60,000 nucleotides of DNA from Callorhinchus milii (taxonomy: Eukaryota), in the NCBI RefSeq assembly GCF_018977255.1, contig NW_024704742.1:127846001-127906000 (forward strand), given 5' to 3'. Shown one piece after another: positions 1-56,036 of the stretch. Within the stretch, counting starts at the first letter, position 1; the number at the start of each line of letters is the position of its first letter. A program made the translations under genes and the position numbers. Under the pieces are notes generated by a model that was not told the origin of the DNA, did not search any database, and saw only the letters and a program-made list of their open reading frames with translations.

Positions 1-620
1 TCAGGCTGCCAAAACCCTCACTCATGCATTCAGCACCTCCAGGCTTGATTACGGGAACACCCTCCTCATCAGCCTTCCCAACTCTTCCCTTCACAAACTG
101 CAGATCATCCAAAACTCTGCAGCTCATGTGCTCTCACGCACCAGGCTCCGCAAACCCATCACTCCCACCCTCGCCCGACTCCACTGGCTCCCCATTCCCC
201 AGAGGATCGAGTTCAAGATCCTCGTCCTCACCTTTAAGGCCATCCACTGCCTTGCCCCCTCCTACTTCTCTGATCTGCTGACTCCATACCAAACTGCCCG
301 TTCCCTCCGTTCATCAGGCTCCGGCCTGCTCCATGTCTCCCGCCCGACCCGCCCTACCATCGGTGCCCGGACTTTCAGCCGCTCTGCCCCCACACTCTGG
401 AACTCCATCCCACGGTCTCTTCGCCTCACTTCCTCCCTTGCCTCCTTCAAGGCCGGTCTCAAGACCCTTCTCTTCGATCGTGCCTTTGGTCTCCTTCCCA
501 CCTCTCTGCCTTCCCTCACTCCTACACCACCCCTCCCCCATGCTTGGGCCCCGACACCTGACTGTTCAGCGCTTTGGGACATCCTCACGATGTGAAAGGT
601 GCTCTACAAATACAAGATAA
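1..620 (+). mobile_element. L2-clade LINE, 3' end of ORF2 plus 3'UTR and tail (5' part outside window)
   Basis: Frame open from 2 to 595: HAFSTSRLDYGN...LQIIQNSAA...LHWLPIPQRIEFKILVLTFKA...APTLWNSIP...FKAGLKTLLF, typical of the L2 ORF2 C-terminus; ends in stem-loop AGCGCTTTGGGACATC...GATGTGAAAGGTGCT. Confidence 0.93.
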
Positions 621-801
621 CAACAAGATTCCATTTATAAAGCGCCTTTCACGTCAGGAGGACGTCCCAAGGCGCTGCACAGTTGGGTCAGGACCCGAGC
701 AGGGGGAAATGGTCAGGGTGAGGGGAGGGAAGGGAGGGAGCGAGGAGGGGGGAAATGGTCAGGGTGAGGGGAGGGAAGGGAGGGAGCGAGGAGGGGAAAT
801 G
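620..801 (-). mobile_element. Young L2 3' stub, tail-to-tail with the previous L2; internal ~46-bp tandem duplication
   Basis: AACAACAAGATTCCATTTATAAAGCGCCTTTCACGTCAGGAGGACGTCCCAAGGCGCT is the reverse L2 tail; nearly identical to 29980-30150. Confidence 0.88.
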
Positions 802-2139
802 TAATTTTGTTCATGTTGTAACATGTTTGGGGGGGGGGGTGCATAAAATCCCAACCAGTGTTATAAGGTGGAGGGGTCACTGGTTGGAGCTTCTGCATCC
901 CCTGCAGAAAGCTGACTGGCTTCCCGACAAGATAGGGCCCGTTACCATAATATATGCTAATAATACCAGCTCTCAAATGGAAGCTTGTTAGGTTCTGTCC
1001 CAGAGCGCTTATAAACAAAAATAAAGACAACAGACTCTGAGACCCTATCCTGCATGAAGGGTGCTCTATAAATGCAAGTTGTTGCTATGATGTTATTTTA
1101 ATGGCTGGCATGGTGAAGATAAATTTTTGCCATTTTTTAAAAATTATAGTTTGTTTACTTTGAAGAAAAATGTTCTCGTCCCCCTGACTCCATTGTCCTC
1201 CACGGTCCTCCTACAATCTGTGGGCACTGATATCTTCCCATAATTTTATGAACTGTTTAACTAAACCCTGAAAAATGCATCTTGCTTGTTGGCAACAGTC
1301 TCCCCCACACCCCCCACACACACACTTATGAGAGAAACAGGTGTACCTGGAGTTTATGCCAGTGTTACAACAATCCTGTGTTGAACCTTATTAAAGCTGA
1401 AAGGTTAACAAAAGCCAGCTTCATTCACGTCAATTAAGCAATGCAACGCATGGGAAAAAACATTCAGTTACTAACTTCATTAAGTATTGTTTCGGTAAAA
1501 CGGTAATGATTATCCCTCCCCTCCTCCCCCACCACCTTTACAATAGCACATGAAAGTGGTAACTTGCATCTTACTAACAGCATGTGGCAGTTATAATAAA
1601 GAAATTAAACTCTAATAACTAAAAGCAGATTCACTTCAAATAGAAATGCAAGGAAATACAAAGCATTTGTCAATATTAAACATGATACTGTAGAAGATTT
1701 ATTATAATATTGTATGTTAGACTCTATGTATCCCGCACATTAAATCAATGTTTCTGCATGACTAAGAATGTTCCGAATGCTTAAAAGACTGTGGCTGACT
1801 ATTGTGGAAGGGGAAGGATGTTGGATCTCTTTGGGGCAGAGCAGTGTTTGAAGTAACCTCGTGTTTGATTTTCGGAATTAGGAGTGATTTCAATAAGGTA
1901 AATAGAGAGGAATTACATACACTCATCTCTCAGTCAACAGAGTAGAAATTTAACATTTAACAGACCGTTAACGAAACCAAAGACAGAGGTAGGGAGTTAT
2001 AAAGAGTGAAAAGACAAGGAAACAAGTCATTTGGCCCAACTAGTCTGTGCCGGTGTTTTATATTCCACAGGAGCTCCCACCCCTCCTATTCCCCAACTCT
2101 ATAGCACTTAAGTCCCTTCTCTCTCATGTTTGCATCAAT

Positions 2140-2370: not shown

Positions 2371-2744
2371 CGATATTCCCCATATACTGGCTTACGAAAT
2401 AAAACAAATGATAAAATTGTGCTTCAAAGGGTTTGAAGGGTGGTTCAATGGACCACTGTCTTCTCCTGTCTAAAAACTGTTACTACAGCTCAAGGTTACT
2501 ATGAAGGCTAATGACTGACGACAAAAAGCTGTCTTCAGGACTACTGTCCAGAGGAGAACAGATGTCAAGATCAATAGCTTTTGAATAAAATAGAGCAAGC
2601 TGTTTAAATCAATTGAGAACAAATAATCAGGAGCTTTACATGCCAAAAGCTTGCTAAGCAAATGTTCAAATTACATCTTTTGTGGCATTCATTAAAACCT
2701 AAATGTTGACAGAATCACAGAAGTCTCAAACATGTAGAGATACA

Positions 2745-3040
2745 ACACCAACCCGCATTTATATACATTCATGTAGGGTAACATCTCAGAATGTTTTACA
2801 AATATAGGGTCAGACACCAAACAGGGGAAAGGAGAAGGGGGGAGAGGGGCAGGTAACCAAACATACAGTTGAAGAGCTAGGTTTTAAGGCAGAACATCAA
2901 GACAGATAGAGATGGGGTGAAAAAGGAGGGGGGATAGAAGGAGGGAGTTCCTGAGGTTAGGGGCCTAGAATCTGAAAGCTCGGCCACTGATGGTGAGGTG
3001 GAGATGGCAGGGTATCCGCAGAAGAGTAGGGCAGGAGAAG
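2745..3040 (-). mobile_element. Old L2 3' fragment
   Basis: ACAACACCAACCCGCATTTATATAC tail followed by purine-rich decayed L2 antisense (GAGTTCC...CTGAAAGCTCGGCCACTGATGG). Confidence 0.65.
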
Positions 3041-3469
3041 ATCATTAATGATCACAGTCTTCTTTGTGGACAGCTAGCGAACGATCCTGTGGGTTTGAAT
3101 TGAAACTAAAAGTTTAATTTGCAAAACGTTAAACGGAAAAAATGATGGAACCTCGCAGTTTACCAATGCAAAGCACCGGCATGTTTTCAGCAACATATTG
3201 TGCTTGGTTGACAGGGTTGAGGACATGATTGTACTTCCAAGTCTCACAAATGGGCCAGAGCAAATAAGCTGGATGGCCTGGGAGTAGAATGGGGTTTTCC
3301 TTGTGCGAGGGAGAGGTGCTAGGTTCGAAGGTGTTCAAGCAACATCTGGCAGAAAACCGTGAGTCCTTGCTAGGCTTCACCGGCTCCCTATTGCAGAATG
3401 GATTGATTTCAAGATTGTCACACGGACGTACAAATCATATCATGTCATTCATGCGCTGCTTACATGCAT

Positions 3470-3765
3470 TCCTCTACCTGTTATCTTTGCTTAGTTGGCT
3501 CTGGCCTTCTGCATATCACTCACTCCCTCCACTCACCATCAGCGGCTGTGCTTTCAGCCACTACACCCCGAGACTCTGGAACTCTGTCTCAATCCCTTGC
3601 CCCTCCTTATCAATCTTCAGATTACACCTGAAGACCTTCCTCTTCCACTGTGCCTATGGTCACCTTCCCCCTCTCCCGAGCTCAGCATCAAGCTTTACTA
3701 CTGTTAAGCGCTCTGAGATGCTACCCTGAGTGAAAGATACTATATGAATGTAAGCTGTTGTTGTG
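3470..3765 (+). mobile_element. Old L2 3' fragment
   Basis: Encodes ISGCAFSHYTPRLWNS...FRLHLKTFLFHCAY (L2 ORF2 end); tail AATGTAAGCTGTTGTTG. Confidence 0.8.
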
Positions 3766-5548
3766 TTTTATTGAGACCATGGCAACAACATGCAATATCC
3801 TTCAAGTAGGATAACATCTCAGAGTGCTTCACAGTGGTGGAGCTGGAGAGCGAACAAGGAAGAAGGGGGAGGCAACCACAGGAATATTTGAAGAAGTATG
3901 TTTTAAAGTGAGATTTAAAGATAGGTAGAGAGAGAGGTACTTTCAGAGGTTAGGGACATCACGATTGACCGCCGATGGTGATGTGGAGGACATATGTGGA
4001 AGATTAATGGCAGAATCTGGCTTTGTGAACTTCGTGTTCATGAAAGCACTTAAGGAATTTGCTTACAAAACAAAGTCCTGCTCATCAGGCAGAGAAACAG
4101 GGGTTTTCTGTACAATCTCAGGTCACTGCACAGTCTACGCAAATGCAGCGTGGTGGAAAATCTCAACGTTCCTGTGATGGATGGTACCTCGACTCACTTC
4201 GTTCACAGAGGATGTCACGGTGAGGTACAAGCTCGAGCCCCCAAGTAGCGTAGTGTAAAGCTATCACCTGCAGCGTAGCCCAGGGGTGAGATCAGTAGCA
4301 GTTGAGGCAACTGACTTGGAACAAAGAGCAAGTTCTGTGTACTCTTTCTGAATGAAATCCCACATCCTGACTTTGAAAATAAAGAAAGCTCTCTTAGGAT
4401 AACAACAAAAACAACTTGCATTTATACAGCATCCCAGAGCACTATCCCAGAGGACAGTAAGAGCAATACTATTAACCCAAACGAAAGACGTTTACTATTG
4501 CAAACTGTGGGTTACTCATGCACACTCACACAGACATAGACACCACACATGAGTGGTTTCCCTAGGTCACCATCACATTACAATACAATTTGCATTTATA
4601 AAGTGCCTTTCGTGTTGGGAAGACATCGCAAAACCCTTTACACAGCTGGCAGGGTGCTATATCCTCCAATGACTGGAGCAAGGTTTAAATATACTTGCTA
4701 GATAGATATCCTCTCTTAATCTCTTAATCCAATATTAATGGATTAAGAGGCAGTTTTTTTTGTTGGCTTCATTTAATTTTTCCTCCTTTGCCTTTTCTCT
4801 TTTAAGTGTTCTTGGCTCTTGCTCTCATGGCTTTTCACTCCTTTCACTGCTGAAACATGGTCCACAATAAACTCCACGATTACATCCGTAAAACACCATC
4901 CACAATAAACTCCATAACCACATTTGTAAAACGCAACCATGGTTGGACTTCACCTTTTTTGTAACATATCCTTGATTTAAAAAAAAACACTGTATGTGCG
5001 ACATTGCTTTACGCATATGGCTGCAGTGTTTCGTCCCACAAAATACACAGTCGCTGCACTTTGAGACGTCTCAATGACATGATAAGGTGCTAAATCAAAT
5101 GCGAGGATTATTATTATTATTTCAGGATCAGGGAAACACACCATGGACCATTCTTTGTTAGTGGGTTGCTGTTGACCGCAATGTAGAATATGGGCACTGC
5201 TGGCTTTAAACTGCTGGGATAATTCCAAATGGTGATGGGGAGGGGAAAAGAGGGGTACAATTACTCTGTTGCTCACATGAAATGACTGTGAAGCAGGTTA
5301 CATAAATCCAATTCTAAATCATAGTCTGCTTTGTCAATTGGGAAATAACTGAAGGTGAAGATCTACAACTGAAGCCCTGAATAGATTTGAGCACCTCTAA
5401 CTGTTACTAGAAGTAGAGTAAGCCATTAAGCACTTCGGAGAAACAGGAGCTATGTTTTCCTTTATTTACAGACAGATCACAGAAGTGCTTACCTTCTTGT
5501 TTCTACATAGAAGCGTGCTGTTCAAACGTGAATGACTGTAACCACTAT

Positions 5549-5916
5549 ATAATAATCCTTGCATTTGATATAGCGCCTTATCTCCTTTTCGAGACGTCTC
5601 AAAGCGCTTCACAGAATGCACTGTAAAGTGAATTGACTGTATATTTTGTGGGCAAAACGCAGTAGCCAATTGCACACAGCATTGTTCCACAAACAGTTGT
5701 GGATTGAAGTGAACAAATTTTTTTTGAAGGAATTATTACCCACGAAAAAGCGATCTGCCAATCGACTAATCTAACAACCGAGTTCCAACTTACGGCTAGG
5801 TAAACAGAGGCGTGTGGAGTAAGGAAACTTGCCCAACATTTCACCCTACCGGGAATCGAACCCAGATATCTCAATTGCGAGCTGAGTGCTCTAACTACTG
5901 AGCTACAGGACTCCAC
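5549..5916 (-). mobile_element. tRNA-derived SINE family A, long form
   Basis: Reverse head GTGGAGTCCTGTAGCTCAGTAGTTAGAGC...GGTTCGATTCC (A and B boxes), Deu-like body, L2-type stem-loop and (ATT)n tail. Confidence 0.92.
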
Positions 5917-6934
5917 TTAAGTGAGCTTTGGAGCACGCAACAACAACAACAACTTGCATTTATATAGCACTCTTCATGCGGGGTAGTGTCTCGGAGGCTT
6001 TAGGCAACACCCTACTGTTCAGACTAAATGTGAAAGATGAATAGCTATAGATGAGGAAATTGAAGTAATAAATTCACATCAAAAAGTACAACATAATATG
6101 ACATAAATTGAAGTTCCATTACATTCAATCTGCAACTGAAAAAGACAATGTTACAGATTACACAAGCTGTTCTATTCAATCTATATTTGAGATTAAAATG
6201 TAGCAATGCCAGAACCGGAAATTGCCGCAATAATTGTGATCTCCAGGTTACTCCAGTCAAATTGCAGGATGTGCTAACAAATTTGCTAAATAAACGGCAA
6301 AAAAGTTTTGCAGACAGTGTTTTCTTTCTGTTGGGACTTTTCTCGGCTGAGAAGATGTCCGAGATCAAACTCTTGGCTTCAAATGAGACTTTGGGGTTTT
6401 TGACACTGCAGCGCTGATTATACTGGAGCATCAACAGAATTGGTGAAAAAAATGAACATTCTCCTCAAACCCAGACACAACACACACAAAAGTGCCCACA
6501 TCAGAAGATACGGTTTGCTGCCCATTACAAAATGTCTTCCCCAAGAGTCGCTCATGCACCCATTCAAGTTCTGCGTCAGAGCGAAAAGAAGCCACCAAAA
6601 GCTTAGATAACCACACAGCAACCGAACAAATACTTCACAGCAATCCATGCACCAATAAGGTTGGCTACGGATTTGAGAATGGAGGCAGAAAAGCTCTGAA
6701 AACTAAGAGTGGTTAAACCGAGAGGAGATTACCTTCAAACAAGACCAGACTTCATCAAGCGAGCTGAGTCAAACACTGCGCACTAATTTCAGTACTTAAG
6801 ACTAATTAAGATAAACCGCACAGTTCAGCCTGTGAACATTGATTACAGTAGCCCATTTCCGCTGTTGTATCTACTCTGCTGTAAGAAATGACTCAATGCT
6901 GAATGTTGCCCATAATATTTTATGCCAGGAGGGG

Positions 6935-7105
6935 TCCCTCCAGGGGGAGAGAGCGCATTCCATTCCAACAATCTTTCTCTGGTATTTCCATGTGTAGGTG
7001 GGAAGCATGGAAGTCTCAGTTTGGTTTGGGTAATCTTAAGCATACTGATAGGTTTCTGCATGTGTCAAGACACCTGGCTGACTTTAAAAAACAATTGTCA
7101 GTGTA
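6935..7105 (+). repeat. Unclassified interspersed repeat, copy 1
   Basis: Aligns by eye to the reverse complement of 59655-59830, including exact CATGTGTAGGTGGG. Confidence 0.75.
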
Positions 7106-7884
7106 CTGTATACAGTTATTAAGGTTGCAAGCCAGGCAGCCCAATGGTGTCATAGATAGAGCTGCAACTTATGGAGCAGGAACTCCCTGGTTTGAATCCC
7201 CAGTTGTGCTGAATTTGCTCGTCTGAGCTGAGGCCACAGAGGCCAAATTGTCCACCCTAGCATTTTTCCAGCTTCTAATCCCTCTGTATTTGTAGTGTGT
7301 GCATATGGAGCATTTACATGAGCCCAGGTCAAGCTTGGCTGTGATGCTCTTCGCAGTTGAGTGTCCTGCTGATATGAACAGTGACCAACCTGGTGGATTA
7401 GCATAAGGCAACTGGCAGCTGCGGAACTGCACCCCTATCAACAACAACAACGTGCATTTATATAGCACCCTTCAAGGGCATGCTGGGGACATGTCAATGA
7501 GGAGAAAATTGGAAAATAATTGGGCACAGCAAATCCTAAGAAAAAAAAGTTTGCAAGCTTAAATTTACATCCTGAATAAATCGTTGCAAACATCTCACAG
7601 TGTTTTCCAACTATAACAGTGGGCTCTGAACTTTCATCTGGCAAAAAGGAATCTAACAACCACAAACACTGGCGTATGCAGCTAACCACAATTTTATATG
7701 GCAAAATGTTATGGTTCCACAATGCAGTCAGTGAGTTACTTAACATGACTCAGGTTTGCCTGTCTAATGCTTGATGGACCAGACTCAAGGATTATCTGCC
7801 AACCTTAACCACCACCTCCTAAATCCTCACAGAATTAGTCCTCATAAAATGTCAAACAACTTAGTAATAAGTAGTTGAATTGCA

Positions 7885-8088
7885 GGTCCCCAATGGCTCA
7901 GAGGTTTTGTCCGTCAACAGTTGAGTCATACAGATCGAGGGAAGTCCCAGGTTCCATGCCCGCATTGAGTTAGTTAACTGATCCCATCCGTGCTTACAAT
8001 AGATGTGCCAATTGGCCCCAGGTTAGGGACAGGAAAATGTAGCTATGGTTTAGCTCCTGATTGACATATAACAACCTCGCTGGAGGGC
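7885..8088 (+). mobile_element. Ancient tRNA-derived SINE (family C), decayed; related copy ~7135-7380
   Basis: TGGCTCAG A-box-like and GGTTCCATGCC B-box-like motifs, then GAGTTAG...CAATTGGCCCC...CTCCTGAT. Confidence 0.5.
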
Positions 8089-8089
8089 A

Positions 8090-8420
8090 TATAATAATTC
8101 CAATAATTCTTGCATTTGATATAGGGCCATATCATGTTGCCAAAACATCCCACAGCACTTCACAGGATTTTACTGTAAAGTGAAGTGACTATGTTATTTG
8201 TAGCTGAATGCAGCGGCCAATTTGTGCACAGCAATGTCCCACAAACAGCCATTAAGTGAATGGTCAGTTCTATCTGGGGAATTTGACAAACTCTCTTCTC
8301 TTTTCAAATAGTGCCATGGGATCTTCAACATCTACCCGAACAGGGTTTAATTTCTTAGCCGAATGACAGCAGTTCCAACACTGCAAAGCACTCTCAGCAC
8401 TCCATCGGGGCATCATGAGA
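8090..8420 (-). mobile_element. SacSINE1/DeuSINE-like SINE (family B), 5'-truncated
   Basis: Reverse of AAGATCCCATGGCACTATTTGAAAAGAAGAG...GGCTGTTTGTGGGACATTGCTGTGCACAAATTGG with (ATT)n tail. Confidence 0.8.
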
Positions 8421-9870
8421 TCTTTAACATTTCCCAGATTTGAACAGGCATCTGGTGCACCTATGATGTCTCCCCCCATACTTTCCCTTCCGACCGACCT
8501 GGTCAAATAACCTGCTAACAACTCACTGCAAAGGTTCACACATAAATAATGGCCTCTTTAGCAAAGGGTGACTGGCACCTTCGGAACATTATACCTCAGT
8601 GCAAAAAAAAAGGGCTAAATAATGGATACTGTATATTTTTAAATTGTGTGGGAGATGAATTTAAACACACTTGAAAGTTTCTTCTTAGAATAATGATCGT
8701 TTCACACCCAGATTTCTTCATTCAGCAAACGCAAGGTTTAAAAAGCTTTGATTGCTTGTCGCCAAGCTTTTAACCGCTTGTTACTAGTAAATGAAAGGTC
8801 TTGCACATCATTGCTACAAATGCCAGGAACTGAAACAGATCAATGGGAGTTGAGGTGAGTGTGTACCATTCCTTTCAGAACAGACAAAATAGACGTCTGT
8901 GAGAATCAATAGAATCTTAAGAGTTTAATAAGCATATGCACAGAGAGCTTTAAAAGAGAAAAAGGACCACAATTCCACCTAGATTTAGCCTGTAAGATTA
9001 TTCTGTCTTAAACCTTAAGGTTGAGTCTTAAGATTTTGATTGGTGGAGAATTATGCAAAATTCTTCAGTTCACTCTTAATTTGGAAGTCGGTCCTTCTTA
9101 AGGACTGCGGAAATGTGGCTTCCAAGTTAACAATGAATTTAAGAATTTTTCCTCAATTCTGGAAGATTTGTTAATTTTAAGCCAAAATGGCCTATTTCAC
9201 GAGGTGAAATTTCAGGCCTCATCAGATGGTTAGACGTTTAAAGTGAGAACTATAATAATAACAATCCATGAATTTGATGCAGCACCTTACCATACCATCA
9301 AAATGTCTCAAAGCCCTTCACGGGATTTACTTTGAAGTGTAGTGACTGTGTCTTTGTAGATGATCTAACACAATGTTTTCCCTCATTCCTGCTGTGTACA
9401 TCTGTTTAGCTTTAGTTTCTGGTGTTTGTGTATTTTTATACCGGGCGACGTGACTGTATCACTGACTCAGCAGGTCCTTGCTCACTCTTTGCGGTATCAA
9501 GTTAGACGAAAGGTTGAATATAACAGGGAGTCTTTCAGAGTCAGACAGAGCTGAGGCATGTTTGCAAGATGAGTGAGAACGTGTGGCTACATTTCCCTCA
9601 GCCACTCAGGCAGCAAAACTAGAAACGTATTCACCTTCAAAGCATTTTTACAAGAAAACACAAACAAGGTGCAATGTAACTAGAACCGTAGAAATTTACA
9701 GCAGTGAAGGTTGTTTGGACTATCGTGTCTGTGCTGCTCCCTCAAGAGCAAGTAACATCCATTTTTGTGCAAATTCACATTATAACAATTCCTTCATGTT
9801 AAACAACAACTCAATAATGCAGCCAAGATAAACTCACATTCTCTCATAAGATCAGAAGAAAATTTCCTCT

Positions 9871-10300
9871 ATGGTACCAGGAATGAGAGACTTGAGTTAT
9901 GTGGAGAGACTAGAGAAGCTCGGATTTTTCTCCTTGGAGCAGAGACGGTTAAGGGGAGATTTAATAGAGATGTTCAACATTATCAGGGGATTCGACAGAG
10001 TGAACAGGGAGAAACTGTTTCCGCTGGCGGGTGGGTCGGTAACCTGAGGACGGAGATTTAAGATAGTTGTCAAACGAAAACAGCGAGTTGCTTGGATCTG
10101 GAATGCACAGCCTGAAAGGGTGATGGAAACAGATTATCTTTCAAGAGAGAAGTGGTTAGATATTTGGGGAGGACAAATCTGAAAAGGCTATGAAAAGAGA
10201 GGGGTAAGTGGGATTAATTTTGACACCTCTTTCAAGAGCCGGCACAGGCACGATGGGTCGAATGGCCTCCTTCTGTGCTGTATAATTCTAAGATTCTATG
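9871..10300 (+). mobile_element. CR1 LINE 3' fragment
   Basis: Encodes YVERLEKLGFFSLEQRRLRGDLIEMFNI (CR1 ORF2 C-terminus); 3' end ATGGCCTCCTTCTGTGCTGTATAATTCTAAGATTCTA. Confidence 0.88.
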
Positions 10301-10688
10301 TGCAATCTGATGACCACTGGAGCCACTCCTCCCCCATTAATATCTGCAGTACAAATCTGTCCCTCAGTTCGTGCTGGTATTTACTATCAAATGTACTGAA
10401 GTGCTCAGAGCATCCTGGCTTTATGTTGAGTTCACTGAATGCTGGCAATGGGGTTCAAGAAACAACATAGGAAAAGAGGCAGTGGAGACAGCAACTGGCG
10501 AAGAAAAGGCACCTTGGGAGGGAAAGTATATCTTCTCCAGGGATCATCACTCTGGATTGCAAGAGCTTAGCTAAACCTGACATTTTTTTTAAAAAAGGCT
10601 CCATTTACATTGCAGTTTTACCAAAAAAAGACTCAATCCCCAAGAGTCTTTTCTGTCTTCTCCTTGGTCCCCAAAATAAAAGTTACCA

Positions 10689-10995
10689 GTGGAATCCTGT
10701 AGCTCAGTGGTTAGAGCACTCACCTTGCAAGTGAGAGACCTGGGTTCAATTCCAGACAGGGCAAAACCTTGGTCAAGTTTCCTTACTCCACACACCCAAT
10801 AATAATCCCTCCAAAACAAAACAATAATAAGTTGGTCATTTTCAATCCATGACTGCTGTGCGCAATTAGCTGCTGCATTTTGCCCACAAATATACGGTCA
10901 ATTCACTTTACAGTCTATTCTGTAAAGCGCTTTGAGACGTCTAGAAGACGTGAAAAGCGCTATATCAAATGCAAGACTTATTATTATTATTATTA
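10689..10995 (+). mobile_element. SINE family A, short form
   Basis: tRNA-Ala-like head, body, stem-loop GACGTCTAGAAGACGT, (TTA)n tail. Confidence 0.92.
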
Positions 10996-12876
10996 CCCAG
11001 TCCCATCTCTCAAACGTACTTGAAGGAATACCACTACAAAGAAAATGTCTTGAGTGCTCAGGTTCGATGCATTGTAGTGGTAATGTGGACCAGCAGAAAA
11101 CTGATGGCCTACGATAAATTCTAATTTATCAAACACCATGATCATTACTAATCCATAAATAAATTAGTCAGTGTTTGTCTTAAATAGGAGTTTACTGGCA
11201 CAGTATTTTGATAAGATACTTTTTATGGACTGTTTACTTTAACATTATTCTCTAGTTGTTTAATCCCTGCTCAGGGTAGATTTCAGATGAGAACCAAATC
11301 ACCTCAGAGAAACACAAGACACAATAAGGAGCAGAGAGGAGCTTTCACATTCGTTAAAATCTTCATTAACAGTTTGAACAAATTTCTACAAATGTAAAGT
11401 TGTATATTAACTTTTTTAAAAACTAAATGGAAAAGCATGCTTGTTGCAAAACTGGAAATATAAACTATGGCAATTGTAGAATTAGTTCTATTGCTTTCTT
11501 GCTCTGCCACCAAGACAGCATTGACTCTTCCTGGCCCAAACAAAATAATGTTTTGAATTCAGCAGCTGCTCCCTCACTTTACCATCCCTTCCAGACCCAC
11601 GTGCCTGAGACGCTGCCCTGCATAAAGGGCACTATATAATTATAATTCTCCCTCCCATGCTCTCTGCCCTTCTATCTCTAGCCCACTCACTGCTCATGCC
11701 TCATTCCCTCAGTCCTACCGTCAGTAGCCATGGCTTCAGCAGCTAATGCCCCACTCTGTGGAACTCACAAGGTCCCGTTGCTTGGTTCCTTCTCTCATAA
11801 GTCTTCAAAACCCTCTTAAAAGCTCTTTGATCATGTTTTCTCAACACTCAGCAAAGAGGAGAGGAGAAAGAAGAGTGAAATACTGAGATGTTTTTAATAC
11901 CTATCTCTTCAACCGTTCTTTTGGCTCCCTCCCCCACCCCCCCCTTTTAGGCTACCAATCAGCGGTGTAAAGCGCTCTGAGACATTCTCCTGACTTCAAA
12001 GGCGCTGCATTGATATAAATTGAGGTTGCTGTTCAACCTATTAGAAACATAACATAAGTGCACTTTGGTATTATTGCTGAGAGTAAAATGTGCATCGACC
12101 CTAACTCCATTCCTGGTGCTAATGAACACAAGGAACAGTTTAAGAACATTGCAAACGTACACCACTGTATCACATGCTTAAGTATTCCATTTCAGACCGT
12201 GGGAAAAGTTAACAAAATCATCACCGTGTTCTAGAAATTAAAATGAGAAGCTCACTTGGTAACCACAATACAGGTACTGCATTCACTCTGCCCGCACATT
12301 GAAAGGAAGCATCATTTTGTGGCCATGACCTTAAAAAAATTACCCTTACCTGCAGCATGGCCATGAATTGCTTTTGCTCGAGCAGAAAAAATCATCCGCA
12401 AAAGCATTGCCATCACTGTCTCATGGAAATGCTAACAACCTTTCATGGCTGCATTGTGTGAAAATTCATCAGTGGCATCCCCTACTGTAGCTATTTACTT
12501 TGGCTTTTAGCTTGTAGCTTGAAATGGGTTACGCACATCAATGCAAGTTTGCACAATGCTGTGGTTTTAGCAGTTGACATGCACAATATCACTGTATTTG
12601 ACAAACCATCACTGTCAAGGACAGCAAAGTGCTTTTCAGGGCAGATGCTTTCTTAAAGAATAAAACCTCCTCAATTGAATTGAAACAATAAAGAGAACTT
12701 GAGCTTTTCTGATACCAGGAATAATAAATGCTTCATTATGTTTTCAGTGAAAGCTCATTATTAATTCAAATCAAAGGAAGCGGGAATAGTTAGACTGTCT
12801 CGTTCCAGCAGAATGTTCTCTCTTTGGATTAAACCAGGTCAGAAATGCTGGTGCTGATTGACAAGCAAACCTTTCT

Positions 12877-13161
12877 TAATAATAATAATCCTTGCATTTG
12901 ATATAGCGCTTTTCATGTTTTCTAGACGTCTCAAAAGCGCTTCACAGAATATATGAACGCGGCAGCCAATTGTGCACAACTGCATCCCACAAGCAGTTGT
13001 GGATTGATTGATCAAATTATTGTTAGTATTTTTTTCTTGAGGGATTATTATCAGACATGTGGAGTAAGGAAACTTGCCCAAGGTTTCATCCTGCTGGGAA
13101 TCAAACCCAGGTCACTCACTTGGGAGGCGAGTGCTCTAACCACTGAGCTACAGGAGTCCAT
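12877..13161 (-). mobile_element. SINE family A, short form with internal deletion
   Basis: Reverse head and (ATT)n tail match the other copies. Confidence 0.9.
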
Positions 13162-13506
13162 GTCCACATCCTATGGACCTGAGATCAAACATGATCTTGA
13201 TAAATAATAACCCTGGCATTTGATAGGACGTCTTATCACGTCAAAGCACTTCACAAGGATTTACAAGACTACCATTCTAAAATTCCCAATGTGGAGCTTA
13301 AACATACAACCTTTTGACTCAGAAGCAAAAGTGCTACCAATAGAACCAGGCTGACACATGTTGAGTGCATGGAGAAGGTTGTCCAAACTTGGGAAATTCA
13401 GGATGAGTTGCCCAATGATTCCTAGCATTGAAACATCTCAAAGCCTTTCACAAGCAATTCTTGACTCTCACAAGCAATTCATCAAAAACTATCTGCCGCA
13501 GAGTGC

Positions 13507-13810
13507 TATAATAATAATAATATTTGCATTTCATATAGCACCCTATCATGTCATGGAAACTTCTCGAAGCATTTCACAGGATTTATTGTAAAGTGCAATG
13601 ACTGTGTATTTGTAGGCGAATACGGTAGATAATATGCATACAACAATGATCTACAAACAGCCAAATGTATGTCCAATTTTATCTTGAGGGAGGTTGGCTT
13701 GGCTACTGGGAGAAACGGGATCTTTAACATCTAACTGAGCAAGCAGACAAGGACCTTGGTTTAATGTTTCATCTGAAAGATGTGCTACCAATTGAGCAGA
13801 GCTGACACCT
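13507..13810 (-). mobile_element. SINE family B, decayed
   Basis: Tail ATAATAATAATATTTGCATTTC, then GGGATCTTTAACATC...TTAATGTTTCATCTGAAAG. Confidence 0.7.
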
Positions 13811-20697: not shown

Positions 20698-21013
20698 GTG
20701 GAGTCCTGTAGCTCAGTGGTTAGAGCACTCGCCTTGCAAGCGAGACACCTGGGTTCAATTCCAGGCAGGGCGAAACCTTGGGCAAGTTTCCTTACTCCAT
20801 AAACCTAATAAACCTCCAAAAAACAAAACAATAATAAAATTGGTCATTTTCAATCCATGACTGTCTGAGGGACACTGCTGTGCGCAATTGGTTGCCGCGT
20901 TTCGCCCACAAATATACAGTCAATTCACTTTACAGCATATTCTGTGAAGCTCTTTGAGATGTCGCGAAGACCTGAAAAGCGCTATATCAAATGCAAGGAT
21001 TATTATTATTATT
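20698..21013 (+). mobile_element. SINE family A, short form, full length
   Basis: Complete tRNA-like head (anticodon arm CTCGC-CTTGCAA-GCGAG); ATTATTG on both sides. Confidence 0.95.
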
Positions 21014-28587: not shown

Positions 28588-28912
28588 ATAATAATAATAA
28601 TAATCCTTGCATTTGATATAGTGCTTTTCACGTCGGGAGGACGTCCCAAAGCGCTTCACAGAACACACTGTAAAGTGAATTGACTGTATATTTATGGGCG
28701 AACGCGGCAGCCAATTGCGCACAGCAATGTCCCACAAACAGTCGTAGATTGAAAATTACCAATTTATTATTGTTTTGGGTTTTGGAGGGATTATTATTAG
28801 GCTCTGTGTGGAGTAAGGAAACTTGCCCAAGGTTTCGCCCTCTGCCTGGAATTGAACTCAGGTCTTTCGCTTGCAAAGCGAGTGCTCTAACCACTGGGCT
28901 ACAGGACTCCAC
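28588..28912 (-). mobile_element. SINE family A, short form, young
   Basis: Full head and tail; tail loop GACGTCCTCCCGACGT. Confidence 0.95.
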
Positions 28913-29640: not shown

Positions 29641-30490
29641 ACGACATTACATTTATACAGCGCCTTTCACGTCGGGAGGATGTCCCAAGGTGCTGGACAA
29701 TTAGTGTTTGGGACCCGAGCTAAGGGTCAGGAGCGGGGAGAGTGGAGGCGGGGGATGGGAAGGGGGGGGGGTGACCGAAGGCATGGTCGAAGAGGAGGCT
29801 CTTAGACGGGTCTGGAAGGAGGCAAGGGAGGGGGTGAGGCGGAGAGACTGTGGGATGGATTTCCAGACGGTGGGGACAGAGTGGCTTAAGGGTGGGGAGG
29901 GTGAAGCGGGGGACATGAAGCAGGCCGGAGCCCGCTGAGCATAGAGAGTGGGCAGGTTGGTAGGGGGTTACAACAACAACAACAACAAGATTCCATTTAT
30001 AAAGCGCCTTTCACGTCAGGAGGACGTCCCAAGGCGCTGCACAGTTGGGTCATGACCCGAGCAGGGGGGAAATGGTCAGGGTGAGGGGAGGGAGTGAGGA
30101 GGGGGGAAATGGTCAGGGTGAGGGGAGGGAAGGGAGGGAGCGAGGAGGGGGAAGAGAGTCGAGAGGGGAGCTGAAGGCTCGGTCAAAGAGAAGAAGGTTA
30201 GGAGGTTGCAGAGGGAGGGAGGAGCAAGGCCATGGAGCGCTTTGAAAGTGAGGACTAGGATCTTGAACTGTATCTGCGGTGTGATGGGAAGCCAGTGGAG
30301 TTGGGCGAGGATGGGAGTGATAGGATCACGGAGCCTGGTGCAGGAGAGGACACGGACTGCAGAGTTCTGGATGATTTGCAGCCTATGGAGGGAGAAGTTG
30401 GGGAGGCCAATAATCAACAACAACCAAAACAAAATTTCATTTGTATGGTGCCTTTCATGTTGGGAGGACGTCCCAAGGCGCAGGGAGTTT
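29641..30490 (-). mobile_element. Three stacked L2 3' fragments (29641-29968, 29969-30410, 30413-30490)
   Basis: Three tails; minus ORF contains LQIIQNSAVRVLS...ITPILAQLHWLPI...FKILVLTFKALHGLAP. Confidence 0.9.
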
Positions 30491-30869
30491 GCACAGATAC
30501 AATGATACGCTTTAAAAGGCATGGGCCAGATTATTATGAAGCACATCAACAGGATTTTATTCTGTTTGAGAGAGGGGTGGGGGTTTATTTTAAACTCCTC
30601 TGTCCCCTTCTTTTTTGGGTTACTCTGTCATTATGGATTCTATTCCAGTTCGGGTGGGGGAGGTTGAATGAATGTTGGCCGGTCACAAAACATACCTCTT
30701 TTGCTGGACTTTCAGTCACCTTTCCCCTCGTCATCCCCCTCAGTTCCCAACCCCAGTTCATCCAGCACTGTGAGGTGCTTTGAGACATTCTCCCAACATG
30801 AAAGGCATTGTATAAATGTAAATTGTATTGTATTGTAATTCCCTCCCACTGTGTTATAAACCTCAATGT

Positions 30870-40140: not shown

Positions 40141-40809
40141 TCCCTCACCATACACCAGCTATCACTGAAAGTCAATCACACACTTAACATCCTCAAAGAT
40201 CAATTGAGCTGCAATTCACAAGAACGTATCTGTACCAGTTATCAAAGGATCAACCAAATTCCATGCATGGAAAATTTATTTTGGTCATTACCCATCTGAA
40301 ATAATCTGCAGACTCACACATTAAATGGTACTCAACTGTTTATGTGCCTTTGAACGAAATGTATTTGCCTACAATGCAAAAGCTCTTTTCTGCAGAAAAG
40401 CAGAAGCAATTGAACTCTACGGAGATTGCATCTTAAGTGATTAATATAAAAATTAGTACATAGTATTAGAACTTGTTTATCTGAAAACCTCGGATTGCAA
40501 TCCAGGCACACCAGCAGGTTTAGCATTGTGGCAAAATTAGCAAAGATGACCAAACTCCACAGATAGGCATCTCCAAACACCTGACTAGTTAATTATCTCC
40601 ATATATGTTCATAAAACAAGCCAAAGAAACAGTTGATGGGCCCTCAATGGCCTATCAAGTTTAAATTGTAAGTAGCTGAACCAACAAAAACAACTTGCAT
40701 TTATATAGCGCCCTTCATGTGAAGTAGCGTCCCGGAGCGCTTAAAACAATGTAATATAGAAAGGCTCCAGATTCAATCCCTCTAGTGTGCACGGTTAGGT
40801 AGTATGGTA

Positions 40810-41320
40810 ACAGCCTGGCTCAGTTAGTAGTACTCTCGTTTCTGAGTCAGGAAGTTACACGTTCAAGTTTGAAGTCTGAACTTTGAGCTCATAGTCAAGG
40901 TCAATACTCCAATTCCTGTCTTTCAGTGATTCCGTCCTTTGGATGAAAGATTAAACCAAGGTCCTCTCTGCCTACAACAAAAACAGAATTCGCTGGGAAC
41001 ACTCAGCAGGTCAGGCAACATCTATGGAGAAAGGAAAGTGAGTCAACGTTTCACAACCCTTCGTCAGAACTCAAATCTGCCTGTTGGGGTAGATGTTAAA
41101 GATCTCATGAGACTGTTCAGAAAAGAGAAGAGAGTTTGTCCCAGTGTCCTGGCCGACAATCCTCCAGATAAATAAATTGAAGGTTTTAGTTTTTGGCCGT
41201 TTGTCAGATGTTGCTGCGTAAAAACTGGCTACCACATTGACCTACAAATACAGTCACTACATTGTACAGAAAACTCTCTGAAGTGCTTTGAGATGTTTCA
41301 AAATGTTATGGTTGCATTTC
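40810..41320 (+). mobile_element. SINE family B interrupted by a 102-bp insertion
   Basis: Head CAGCCTGGCTCAGTTAGTAG; core resumes at 41076. Confidence 0.82.
40974..41075 (-). mobile_element. Penelope-like terminus fragment with minimal hammerhead ribozyme core; 7-bp TSD
   Basis: TCTGCCT at 40967-40973 and 41076-41082; minus strand GAGTT-CTGACGA-AGGGTTGT-GAAAC-GTT-GACTC. Confidence 0.7.
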
Positions 41321-49308: not shown

Positions 49309-49630
49309 GTGGAGTCCTGTAGCTCAGTGGTTAGAGCACTCATTTCGCAAGTGAGACCTGGGTTCGATTCCAGGCAGGGCGAAATCTTGGGCTTGAGTAA
49401 CTTGAGTAAGTTTCCTTACTCCACACGCCTGATAATAATCCCTCAAAAAAATAATAAATTGGTCACTTCAATCCACGACTGTTTGTGAGACACTGCTGTG
49501 TGCAATTGACTGCTGCATTTCGCCGGCAAAAAAAAGTCAATTCACTTTACAGTATATTCTGCAAAGCGCTTAGAGACATCTAAAAGACGTGAAAAGCGCT
49601 ATATCAAATACAAGGATTATTATTATTATT
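49309..49630 (+). mobile_element. SINE family A, short form
   Basis: Full head, body and (ATT)n tail. Confidence 0.94.
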
Positions 49631-50841: not shown

Positions 50842-51146
50842 GTGGAGTCCTGTAGCTCAGTGGTTAGAGCATTTGCAAGCGAGAGACCTGAGTTCAATTC
50901 CAGGCAGGGCGAAACCTTGGGCAAGTTTCCTTACTCCACACGCCTAATAATCCTCCAAAAAAACCAATAATAAATTGGACATTTTCAATCTACGACTGTT
51001 TGTGGGACATTGCTGTGCGCAACTGACTGCCGCATTCGCCCACAAATATACAGTCAATTCACTTTACAGTATGTTCTGTGAGGCGCTTTGGGACGTCCTC
51101 CCGACGTGAAAAGCGCTATATCAAATGCAAGGATTATTATTATTAT
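50842..51146 (+). mobile_element. SINE family A, short form, young
   Basis: Head with small deletion; tail loop GACGTCCTCCCGACGT. Confidence 0.94.
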
Positions 51147-53555: not shown

Positions 53556-55680
53556 AATAGGTTTCCCTATTAGAAATGTCAGCCTAGAATACAAGATCAA
53601 TGTGGCAACACGGGGCTTGAACCCACAACATTTTGACTCAGAAGCAAGCTTGCTGTCCAATAAGCCAGGCCTTTGCAACCCTCTTTGAAAAGATTGTAGG
53701 AATGGACTTGGCTAAGAATAGAGGCTTTTTTGTCTAAGCACAAGGAGGATTCTAACATAGAACGAGAAAGAAGGCGTGCCTTTCCATTAATAACCACTGA
53801 AACTATGCATTAAATGCAGGGGAGTAACCAATACTTTTGTGACACATTCTGGGTCTGATGCATGTTGCAGTTAATGTGCTAACAAACATTTGTATTAATT
53901 TGTCATCAAGCTAACCAGTGATTATCCTGGTTAGTTTGCTGCCAACCAACAATTTTACTTCGTGATTTATGACCATGGATTCTGGACTAACGTAATAAAT
54001 TTCTATTCTTGAGTGTGAAAGCCTTGATCTTATTTTAGATTAAAGATTAAATGCTCCTCCGTGTGCTGGTAAATTTTGAGTCAATGGGATTTTCACGACA
54101 AGCGTACGTTATAATTTATAAGGCAACATGTGTTAACTTACTGGTTTTGACAACTCCAAAAGTTTAGCCTTCCTGGCCATGTCCCTAAATAATCCCAGGA
54201 ATTATGGGGTTAAAACTCATCTTCATACATTCTTTGGTCTATCTTTTCTCTCTCTCTTGCTTCCCATTCTTTAGTTTTTTTTCATTCTTCTGAATTTAGA
54301 CTGTTCCTTTACCTCAGTATGGGTCTGGGCAGATGTCCAAATTTCCCTCCCATAGACAAAACAATTCCACCACATCAATACTGCCCTTTTTTACACCCTG
54401 AATGATTGATAATGTCTTCTCAGTTCTCTGCGCTTAGAGCCCTTCTCTATTGGGGATCTATCCTCTGTGGGAAACAAACACTGCAGACACAAGGCACGGC
54501 ACCCCTTTGGTTCTTTTGAAACAGACCCTACTCCAGCCATTCAAAACAGGCCCGACAGGTCCAAAGCAAACAAACAAATGCATACCAACAGTTATTTCTG
54601 TTGGCCCTTCACAGGTTGCAGATCGCCAGCAGGAAAGACAGGATTTAAGCTTGCACTGAACTGATATGTCTCGTCACCTCATTCTCCACTTCCCACAGAA
54701 AAGGGAAGGGAGGAGGGAGGAGGCCTGATTGCATCTGTCAGTTTGCTGACAATAGGCCGTCTTGTAAGCACTTCCAACACTTTCCCAACAGTTCATTCAG
54801 ACACATTAAGAAGTCCTCCATCACACATGATCGGACTCAAAACAGATATTTTGTTGAAAGAAAATGTACACAGATAGGAATGGGCCAAGTCTAATAAAAG
54901 AATCTCACCACAGAAAAACTGATCGGCAACTCCAAAATAGCCATCAAAGCATTGTGCGAGACTTAAAATTGCCACGGTTGAAAAGGAGGGCAGACCCAGA
55001 AAATGCACCGTAATCTGTTGTAATTCATGGTCCGACTACATTTGCTGTACTCCATCCTATTCAAAGAAGGCAGCTGCACAGATAAGCTGCATTGAATCAG
55101 AAAGTACATTACAGGATTCTCAAAGTTTCGTCCTAAAAGTTTAGGCCTTTGGTTTCGTCATTTCGCAACGTAAAACAATTTGATCTTTGGTATCAAGACA
55201 ACACTCATAATTTGAAGATTTTAAGAGGCTAAGATACAAAAGCTTAAATAGAATTATCAGAGGAACACACTTACTTTGAAAGGAGTTGAACAATTCAGTA
55301 ACATGGGAAAAACCTGATTAGTGGAGAGAAGGAGGCTTCAGTCCTGAAATGATGTAATCAAACAAAGGTGTAGTTTAGCAAAACCAGCCACAGACCAGTT
55401 TCATAGCCCATAAAAAGGAAGTAAGTGGCACTTCAATGGTACAATGAGAAAAGCTTTACAACCTCAGCCTCATCAACACAGGGTGTCTGTTTTCATTGTG
55501 AGCCGAATAACAGACCTCTGAAAGGCCATAAAACACATTCATTGTCTTAAGAAAGAGGCATTTACTCCCAACCTAACACAGTCTTCTCATAAGGACTCTT
55601 TTGTTCACATCGCTTTCAGAGAAAAAAATATTCTTCACGTCTGCACACATCTGTCATTTTAAGGAATCTTATCATCATTG

Positions 55681-56036
55681 TTCTGTAGCTCAGTGGTTAG
55701 AGCACTTGCCTGGCATGCGAGAGGACCTGGGTTTGATTCCCAGGCAGGGCGAAACGTTGGACAAGTTTCCTTACTCCACACGCCTCTATTTACCTATCAG
55801 TAAGTAGTCAGTCGATTGGTGGATCACTTTTCTGGGGGTAATAATCCTTTAAAAACAAACAATGATTTATCAATCAATCCACCACTGTGTGTGGGACACT
55901 GCTGTGCGTAAATGGCTGTCGCGCTTTGCCCACAAAATAGTTAATTCATTTTACAGTATATTCTGTGAAGCACTTTGAGACGTCTAGAAGACGTGATAAG
56001 GCGGTATATCAAATGCAAGGATTATCATTATTATTA
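55681..56036 (+). mobile_element. SINE family A, long form
   Basis: Head TGTAGCTCAGTGGTTAGAGC, long internal segment, tail. Confidence 0.93.

Follow-up and report, generated by a model that had tools for sequence, protein, structure and literature searches.

The window analysed here, a 60,000-nucleotide stretch of the Callorhinchus milii genome, contains a SINE-like interspersed repeat that is split by a short insert, and this insert carries the core of a minimal type I hammerhead on its minus strand. The features of the locus are given below with the evidence on which each assignment is based.

40810..41320, plus strand: interrupted host interspersed repeat, SINE-like, with approximate ends (copies within the window)
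40967..40973, plus strand: left 7-bp copy of the target-site duplication, host repeat sequence (sequence and host-copy alignment)
40974..41075, minus strand: 102-bp insert (about 40976-41071 matches a high-copy family)
40976..41038, minus strand: family sequence 3' of the hammerhead; the copy ends before an extension of at least 30 nt seen in other copies
41039..41044, minus strand: 3' arm of stem I (pairing)
41045/41044, minus strand: expected position of the scissile bond (core layout)
41045..41052, minus strand: GAAA box, positions of the loopless palindromic helix III and GUU triplet (sequence)
41053..41060, minus strand: remnant of stem II, consisting of an unpaired A, the 5' arm with one CpG-type change and a partial loop (family comparison)
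41061..41067, minus strand: CUGACGA core box (C3 to A9), intact (sequence and descriptor)
41068..41073, minus strand: 5' arm of stem I, the inner 4 nt family-derived and the outer 2 nt from the junction (sequence and pairing)
41076..41082, plus strand: right 7-bp copy of the target-site duplication (sequence)

The heptamer TCTGCCT stands exactly at 40967-40973 and again at 41076-41082 with 102 bp in between, and the insert letters 40974-40975 and 41072-41075 differ from the family sequence described below and belong to the junctions. The right part of the host repeat has up to 12 matches within the window, and the four copies alignable to both flanks of the site (23569+, 58859-, 57353- and 50021+) contain the CTGCCY-type word once. 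As host copies carry the duplicated word only once, its second occurrence here is a genuine addition to the host repeat, which bears out the initial description of a 102-bp insert that splits a repeat and is flanked by an exact 7-bp duplication. Public contigs that diverge after 40973 resume the host repeat with sequence equivalent to that from 41083 on (run X3, 139 contigs; run X2, 59 contigs), and an exact empty-site joint was not found among the 15 joints listed, with 18 more existing. Runs X2 and X3, which derive from organism A and from two studies, also contain contigs (records 17, 24, 25 and 32) that span both junctions together with the ungapped short stem II. Since the junctions and the deleted stem are found in contigs of both runs, they do not represent an assembly slip; either run could be the source of the window itself.

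The duplication can alternatively be read as 10 bp long, comprising CTC and the heptamer, with three A's added in the right copy (40964-40973 versus 41070-41082). The first two letters of this longer version coincide with the last two family letters of the element, as a microhomology join would give. The right junction at 41073-41079 has the 7-letter word AAATCTG, which is likewise present within the tail extension of the family and could suggest a preference for tail-like targets, although this observation was made post hoc and is possibly due to chance.

Read on the minus strand from 41072 to 41040, the insert spells out a type I minimal hammerhead core, with the letters exactly as the first-pass annotation had given them. 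This core is above chance: a relaxed descriptor that ignores stem II (CUGANGA, 2-30 nt, GAAA, a palindromic pair, UH, and a stem I of at least 4 bp) finds one site in the window versus 0.03 matches per shuffled window over 100 dinucleotide shuffles. CUGANGA, GAAA and the NUH triplet are all present, as is the palindromic pair 15.2-16.2, and helix I directly adjoins the core. The annotated stem I of GAGTT and GACTC does form, although 6 bp are possible rather than 5, while only the inner 4 bp are sequence of the family. Helix II, on the other hand, lacks its closing pair at 10.1-11.1 and retains at most 1 bp, with a fold energy of 0.0. Compared to the G-C form of the family, 6 nt corresponding to the whole 3' arm of stem II are gone between 41052 and 41053, and the 5' arm shows a CpG-type transition. 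This deletion accounts for the reduction of stem II to about 1 bp that had been noted initially, and it supports the accompanying suggestion of an inactive copy.

Lacking helix II, the window copy is classed as a broken remnant and not as a ribozyme. In the published dimer model the second molecule supplies helix III but not helix II, so that the window copy, judging from its letters, should not cleave either alone or as a dimer. The calculated dimer energy of -3.1 kcal/mol compared to -17.2 kcal/mol for the best co-fold carries no evidential weight, because two natural comparators also fall well short of their own best co-fold and are without a proper stem I. The insert further contains a 16-codon reading frame, which is too short for an informative protein comparison.

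An Rfam search of the insert, which addressed the proposed check with hammerhead models, returned no hammerhead match at the gathering threshold or at E values up to 10, and the insert folds no better than its shuffles (z = 0.43). Both results would fit a core that resembles a hammerhead by chance within some unrelated short repeat, next to a coincidental 7-bp repeat; the Rfam outcome in itself weighs in neither direction. We consider this explanation scarcely credible, as the descriptor is matched so rarely in shuffled windows, the duplicated word is single in the host copies and stem II is restored in the family, including a change on both sides of the helix.

This restored helix became apparent from public contigs. 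Contigs of four of the 24 listed runs were aligned to 40900-41150 at 80% likeness, amounting to 2,571-13,636 contigs per run; none of the 24 runs is on record as RNA, and X2 is presumed to be RNA by guess. Summed depth in X3, which does not translate into copy number, reaches about 651,000 within the insert compared to about 21,000 in the flanking repeat and about 8-14 at 40900-40917. Judged from these alignments, organisms A, B and C all harbour the high-copy family of which the insert is a member, and copies beyond the window, whose absence would have counted against the original proposal, are thus present in contigs of three organisms. The family presumably is a familiar shark repeat.

Where contigs leave the alignment, their majority consensuses were compiled, each of which represents many contigs and not a single copy; 24 of these loose-end consensuses are listed and 789 more exist. 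The stem II region is crossed by 13 of the 24 listed, with an agreement of 0.51-0.66. In eight of the 13, stem II consists of 5 bp closed by G-C, with the arms GGGUC and GACCC, a 3-nt loop and one unpaired A ahead, whereas four (one per run) close the same stem by A-U through a two-sided change and one is mixed and unpaired at the closing position. The family consensus thereby comprises helix II, the unpaired A after A9 and a compensatory change of the closing pair, with the 5-bp stem found in 12 of the 13 informative consensuses listed. Conservation of the core and covariation of a stem, on which the hammerhead assignment had been made to depend, are consequently both observed in the family. 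Its consensus shows the complete layout of a minimal type I hammerhead and is a predicted ribozyme. Family copies are nevertheless often decayed, as a CpG change at position 16.2 accounts for about 11-16% of depth and the G12 position is changed in three of the eight listed G-C consensuses.

Family variants at 40989, 41023 and 41038-41039 have a far higher share in organisms B and C than in A; at 40989, T is replaced by A in about 60% in organisms B and C versus 4% in A. These shares may point to different subfamily expansions.

Beyond the 3' end of the window copy, hundreds of contigs per run share a further 30 nt or more, an extension lacking in the copy itself. Consensuses entering this extension before 40976 and 40979 comprise 252 and 246 contigs in X3, and agreement over all such consensuses is 0.42-0.58. 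The distance from C3 to the 3' end of the copy is about 92 nt, or about 120 nt or more when the extension is counted. Joints to the opposite strand connect 41015 or 41023 with 41053 or 41070 in runs X13 and X14; they make up three of the 15 listed joints, two of them at 41070, and correspond to inverted partner copies in organisms B and C. No such joint exists at the window locus, and none is listed from the two runs of organism A among these 15 (of which 18 more exist).

These properties agree well with what is known about Penelope-like elements (PLEs). Minimal hammerheads (min-HHRs) in the pseudo-LTRs (pLTRs) of metazoan PLEs were described in 2014 by Cervera and De la Pena (PMC4209133), together with a metazoan consensus that features an extra nucleotide after position 9 and a palindromic 15.2-16.2 pair. 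According to the same source, thousands of dispersed single min-HHR motifs per genome are ascribed to truncated PLEs. Like the motifs described there, the insert family is of type I and combines CUGANGA, an unpaired nucleotide, GAAA, a loopless palindromic helix III, NUH and a short helix I; unlike them, the window copy is without helix II, and a subset of the family closes helix II by A-U and not by the usual G-C.

The ends of the insert can be compared to PLE insertions as well, which have an optional tail of 30-40 bp and are frequently accompanied by a 5'-truncated copy in inverted orientation (PMC8557442). For Poseidon of Anolis carolinensis, the ORF is reported to begin at stem II of the hammerhead, reverse transcription (RT) starts internally about 110-120 nt in, more closely 111-118 nt, and the tail equals the segment between two internal RT start sites, whereas hammerhead cleavage requires the protein and is dispensable for insertion in vitro (PMC11167929, Frangieh et al. 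2024). Penelope families of the rotifer Adineta vaga show duplications of 8-10 bp, solo pLTRs and 5' joins with microhomology (PMC3846280). The insert family resembles these 3' ends of endonuclease-positive PLEs, as far as they are described in PMC11167929 and PMC3846280, in placing a hammerhead about 100 nt from the 3' end with a putative optional tail of about 30 nt, as well as in its inverted partner copies, short duplication and solo terminal copies. With 7 bp, the duplication at the window locus differs from the 8-10 bp reported for A. vaga (PMC3846280), and, unlike for Poseidon and A. vaga Penelope, no ORF was seen for the insert family, which may belong to Poseidon, Neptune or another clade.

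Taken together, the stem II layout, the 3' extension, the inverted joints and the short duplication lead us to read the insert as a PLE end. It is highly probable that the extreme 3' end, i.e. the pseudo-LTR end, of an endonuclease-bearing PLE was inserted into the SINE-like repeat and has since decayed, and the best reading of its present form is a tail-less, heavily 5'-truncated terminus that arose by target-primed reverse transcription. The 3' extension of other copies would then be the optional PLE tail. Following published PLE biology, the GIY-YIG endonuclease of the element would have nicked the target, whereupon RT would have begun internally on the element RNA, using the closer of two start sites; this choice would explain why the window copy is without the tail of about 30 nt. 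After copying about 96 nt, RT would have halted just 5' of stem I of the hammerhead. Joining of the second end may have involved a few extra letters and possibly a CT microhomology of 2 nt, and the duplication would have arisen from a second nick in staggered position. The 6 nt of the stem II region may have been lost before or after insertion. For cleavage, the hammerhead of the parent element would depend either on dimer formation via the palindromic helix III or on assistance by the element's protein.

The initial proposal had left the choice between a PLE terminus and a small retrozyme-like element. While the PLE end is favoured by the core, the covarying stem II, the 3' extension and the inverted joints, the retrozyme half of the proposal is not supported for the window copy, a lone monomer in 60 kb. 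Retrozymes are defined by tandem units that each contain a complete hammerhead (bioRxiv 10.64898/2026.07.22.740005; PMC7229834), and the insert would in this case be a monomer descended from a tandem non-LTR retrozyme, a hammerhead satellite that propagates via small circular RNAs. Such an origin is conceivable in that retrozymes are descended from PLE pLTRs, can exist as monomers and have been detected in the one chondrichthyan sampled (bioRxiv 10.64898/2026.07.22.740005). Like the animal non-LTR retrozymes of PMC7229834, the insert is non-coding, contains a type I hammerhead and is related to pLTRs. The window, however, holds a single broken copy where at least two tandem units with complete hammerheads would be expected, and blastn, nhmmer and a motif search found no second copy in the 60 kb, so that the tandem copies suggested as a check did not turn up. 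The insert ends also lie away from the cleavage site at 41045/41044, unlike those of a unit-length cleavage product, and its hammerhead is of the minimal PLE type in contrast to the canonical type I hammerheads of the retrozymes described in PMC7229834. One joint among those listed, in runs X13 and X14, does go back by 60, but this 60-nt period places about 37 other letters between its two sides and does not amount to a unit-length repeat. We therefore judge a retrozyme origin to be very improbable.

A more serious challenge to a randomly truncated PLE end comes from the 5' side of the family. All 11 loose-end consensuses that reach past the last shared letters at 41071 diverge within 1-2 nt, and longer pLTR sequence was not recovered from them. 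This absence of a shared continuation beyond 1-2 nt upstream of stem I speaks against the PLE-end reading in its simplest form, as random 5' truncation alone predicts one, and it fits a preferred 5' boundary. The family could accordingly represent a non-autonomous mini-element in its own right, about 100-135 nt long and mobilised in trans, whose 5' boundary is fixed at the stem I edge. It would originate when RT starts internally in the 5' pLTR copy of the transcript itself and runs off at the transcription start next to stem I, in line with reports that PLE transcripts begin within the upstream pLTR (PMC2377424) and that RT starts internally near the pLTR-ORF junction (PMC11167929). On the other hand, just 4-6 letters are visible beyond the boundary, mixed subfamilies with differing upstream sequence would fit equally well, and the deletion in the window copy kept most contigs from aligning across stem II. 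Although compatible with a PLE origin, from which it differs in the programmed boundary, this scenario appears rather unlikely to us. If true, three related organisms would share a very abundant mini-retroposon that bears a hammerhead and is fixed at both ends, and its ends would map in vivo RT start sites as well as the transcription start of the parent element.

Coding sequence of a parent PLE was searched for in the window and in the contig collections scanned, where no RT or GIY-YIG ORF was seen beside a member of the insert family. A pattern specific for the family gave 0 matches in viral contigs, 0 in metagenome contigs and 0 in a scan of prokaryote genomes. A relaxed pattern matched three metagenome loci (L001, L002 and L003), which were rejected as family members, as none aligned to the insert with better than E 0.93. 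L001, an unrelated metagenome contig, encodes a partial PLE-like ORF (306-1148, minus strand) with a cysteine-rich linker and a GIY-YIG domain that matches Pfam above the cut-off. A hammerhead-like core with the stem II arms of the insert family lies 160 nt behind this ORF in the same sense (118-145, minus strand), with an adjacent stem I absent (0 bp). The sequence downstream of the motif shows weak similarity, which 32 of 2000 shuffles equal, and a tblastn comparison of the L001 PLE protein with the window gave nothing better than E 0.12. The L001 layout may parallel the PLE-end reading of the insert by analogy only. Hammerhead-like cores with a 7-bp stem II and a 2-bp stem I occur at 909-942 (plus strand) of L002 and 941-974 (plus strand) of L003; both contigs are near-identical and AT-rich, and no PLE-like ORF was seen in L002.

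A literature search combining hammerhead, Penelope and shark or Callorhinchus, whose scope ended before Repbase, Dfam and subscription journals, returned no paper devoted to the insert family, which may well be catalogued there. The searchable part of the PMC4209133 supplement contains no shark or Callorhinchus entry, and the chondrichthyan list of bioRxiv 10.64898/2026.07.22.740005 could include the family.

The insert is most likely an unremarkable relic of a retroelement end of known kind, with the window copy being inert debris, and as a dead copy of this kind the single locus matters little. In aggregate, such short copies document the start and stop points of PLE reverse transcription in vivo; for one element, these points have been mapped in vitro (PMC11167929). 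Piling up the ends of the copies across the genome could test the start-site model in another vertebrate lineage and reveal whether the 5' boundary is set by the hammerhead region.

Several other repeats were encountered in the window. Rfam reports eight tRNA matches (5841-5912, 10696-10760, 13086-13157, 20702-20773, 28842-28904, 49313-49382, 50846-50912 and 55680-55751), which are adjoined by similar sequence and most likely represent the heads of one tRNA-derived SINE family and not tRNA genes. These tRNA-headed repeats were considered as relatives of the insert as well, and the weak matches obtained (E of at least 0.19) were rejected as chance. Two related ORF fragments at 128-595 and 30076-30549 are presumably similar to L2/CR1-type LINE proteins in their C-terminal part. 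A separate short repeat with about 11 matches in the window, probably the 3' end of a LINE or SINE, occupies 40675-40730 immediately upstream of the host repeat.
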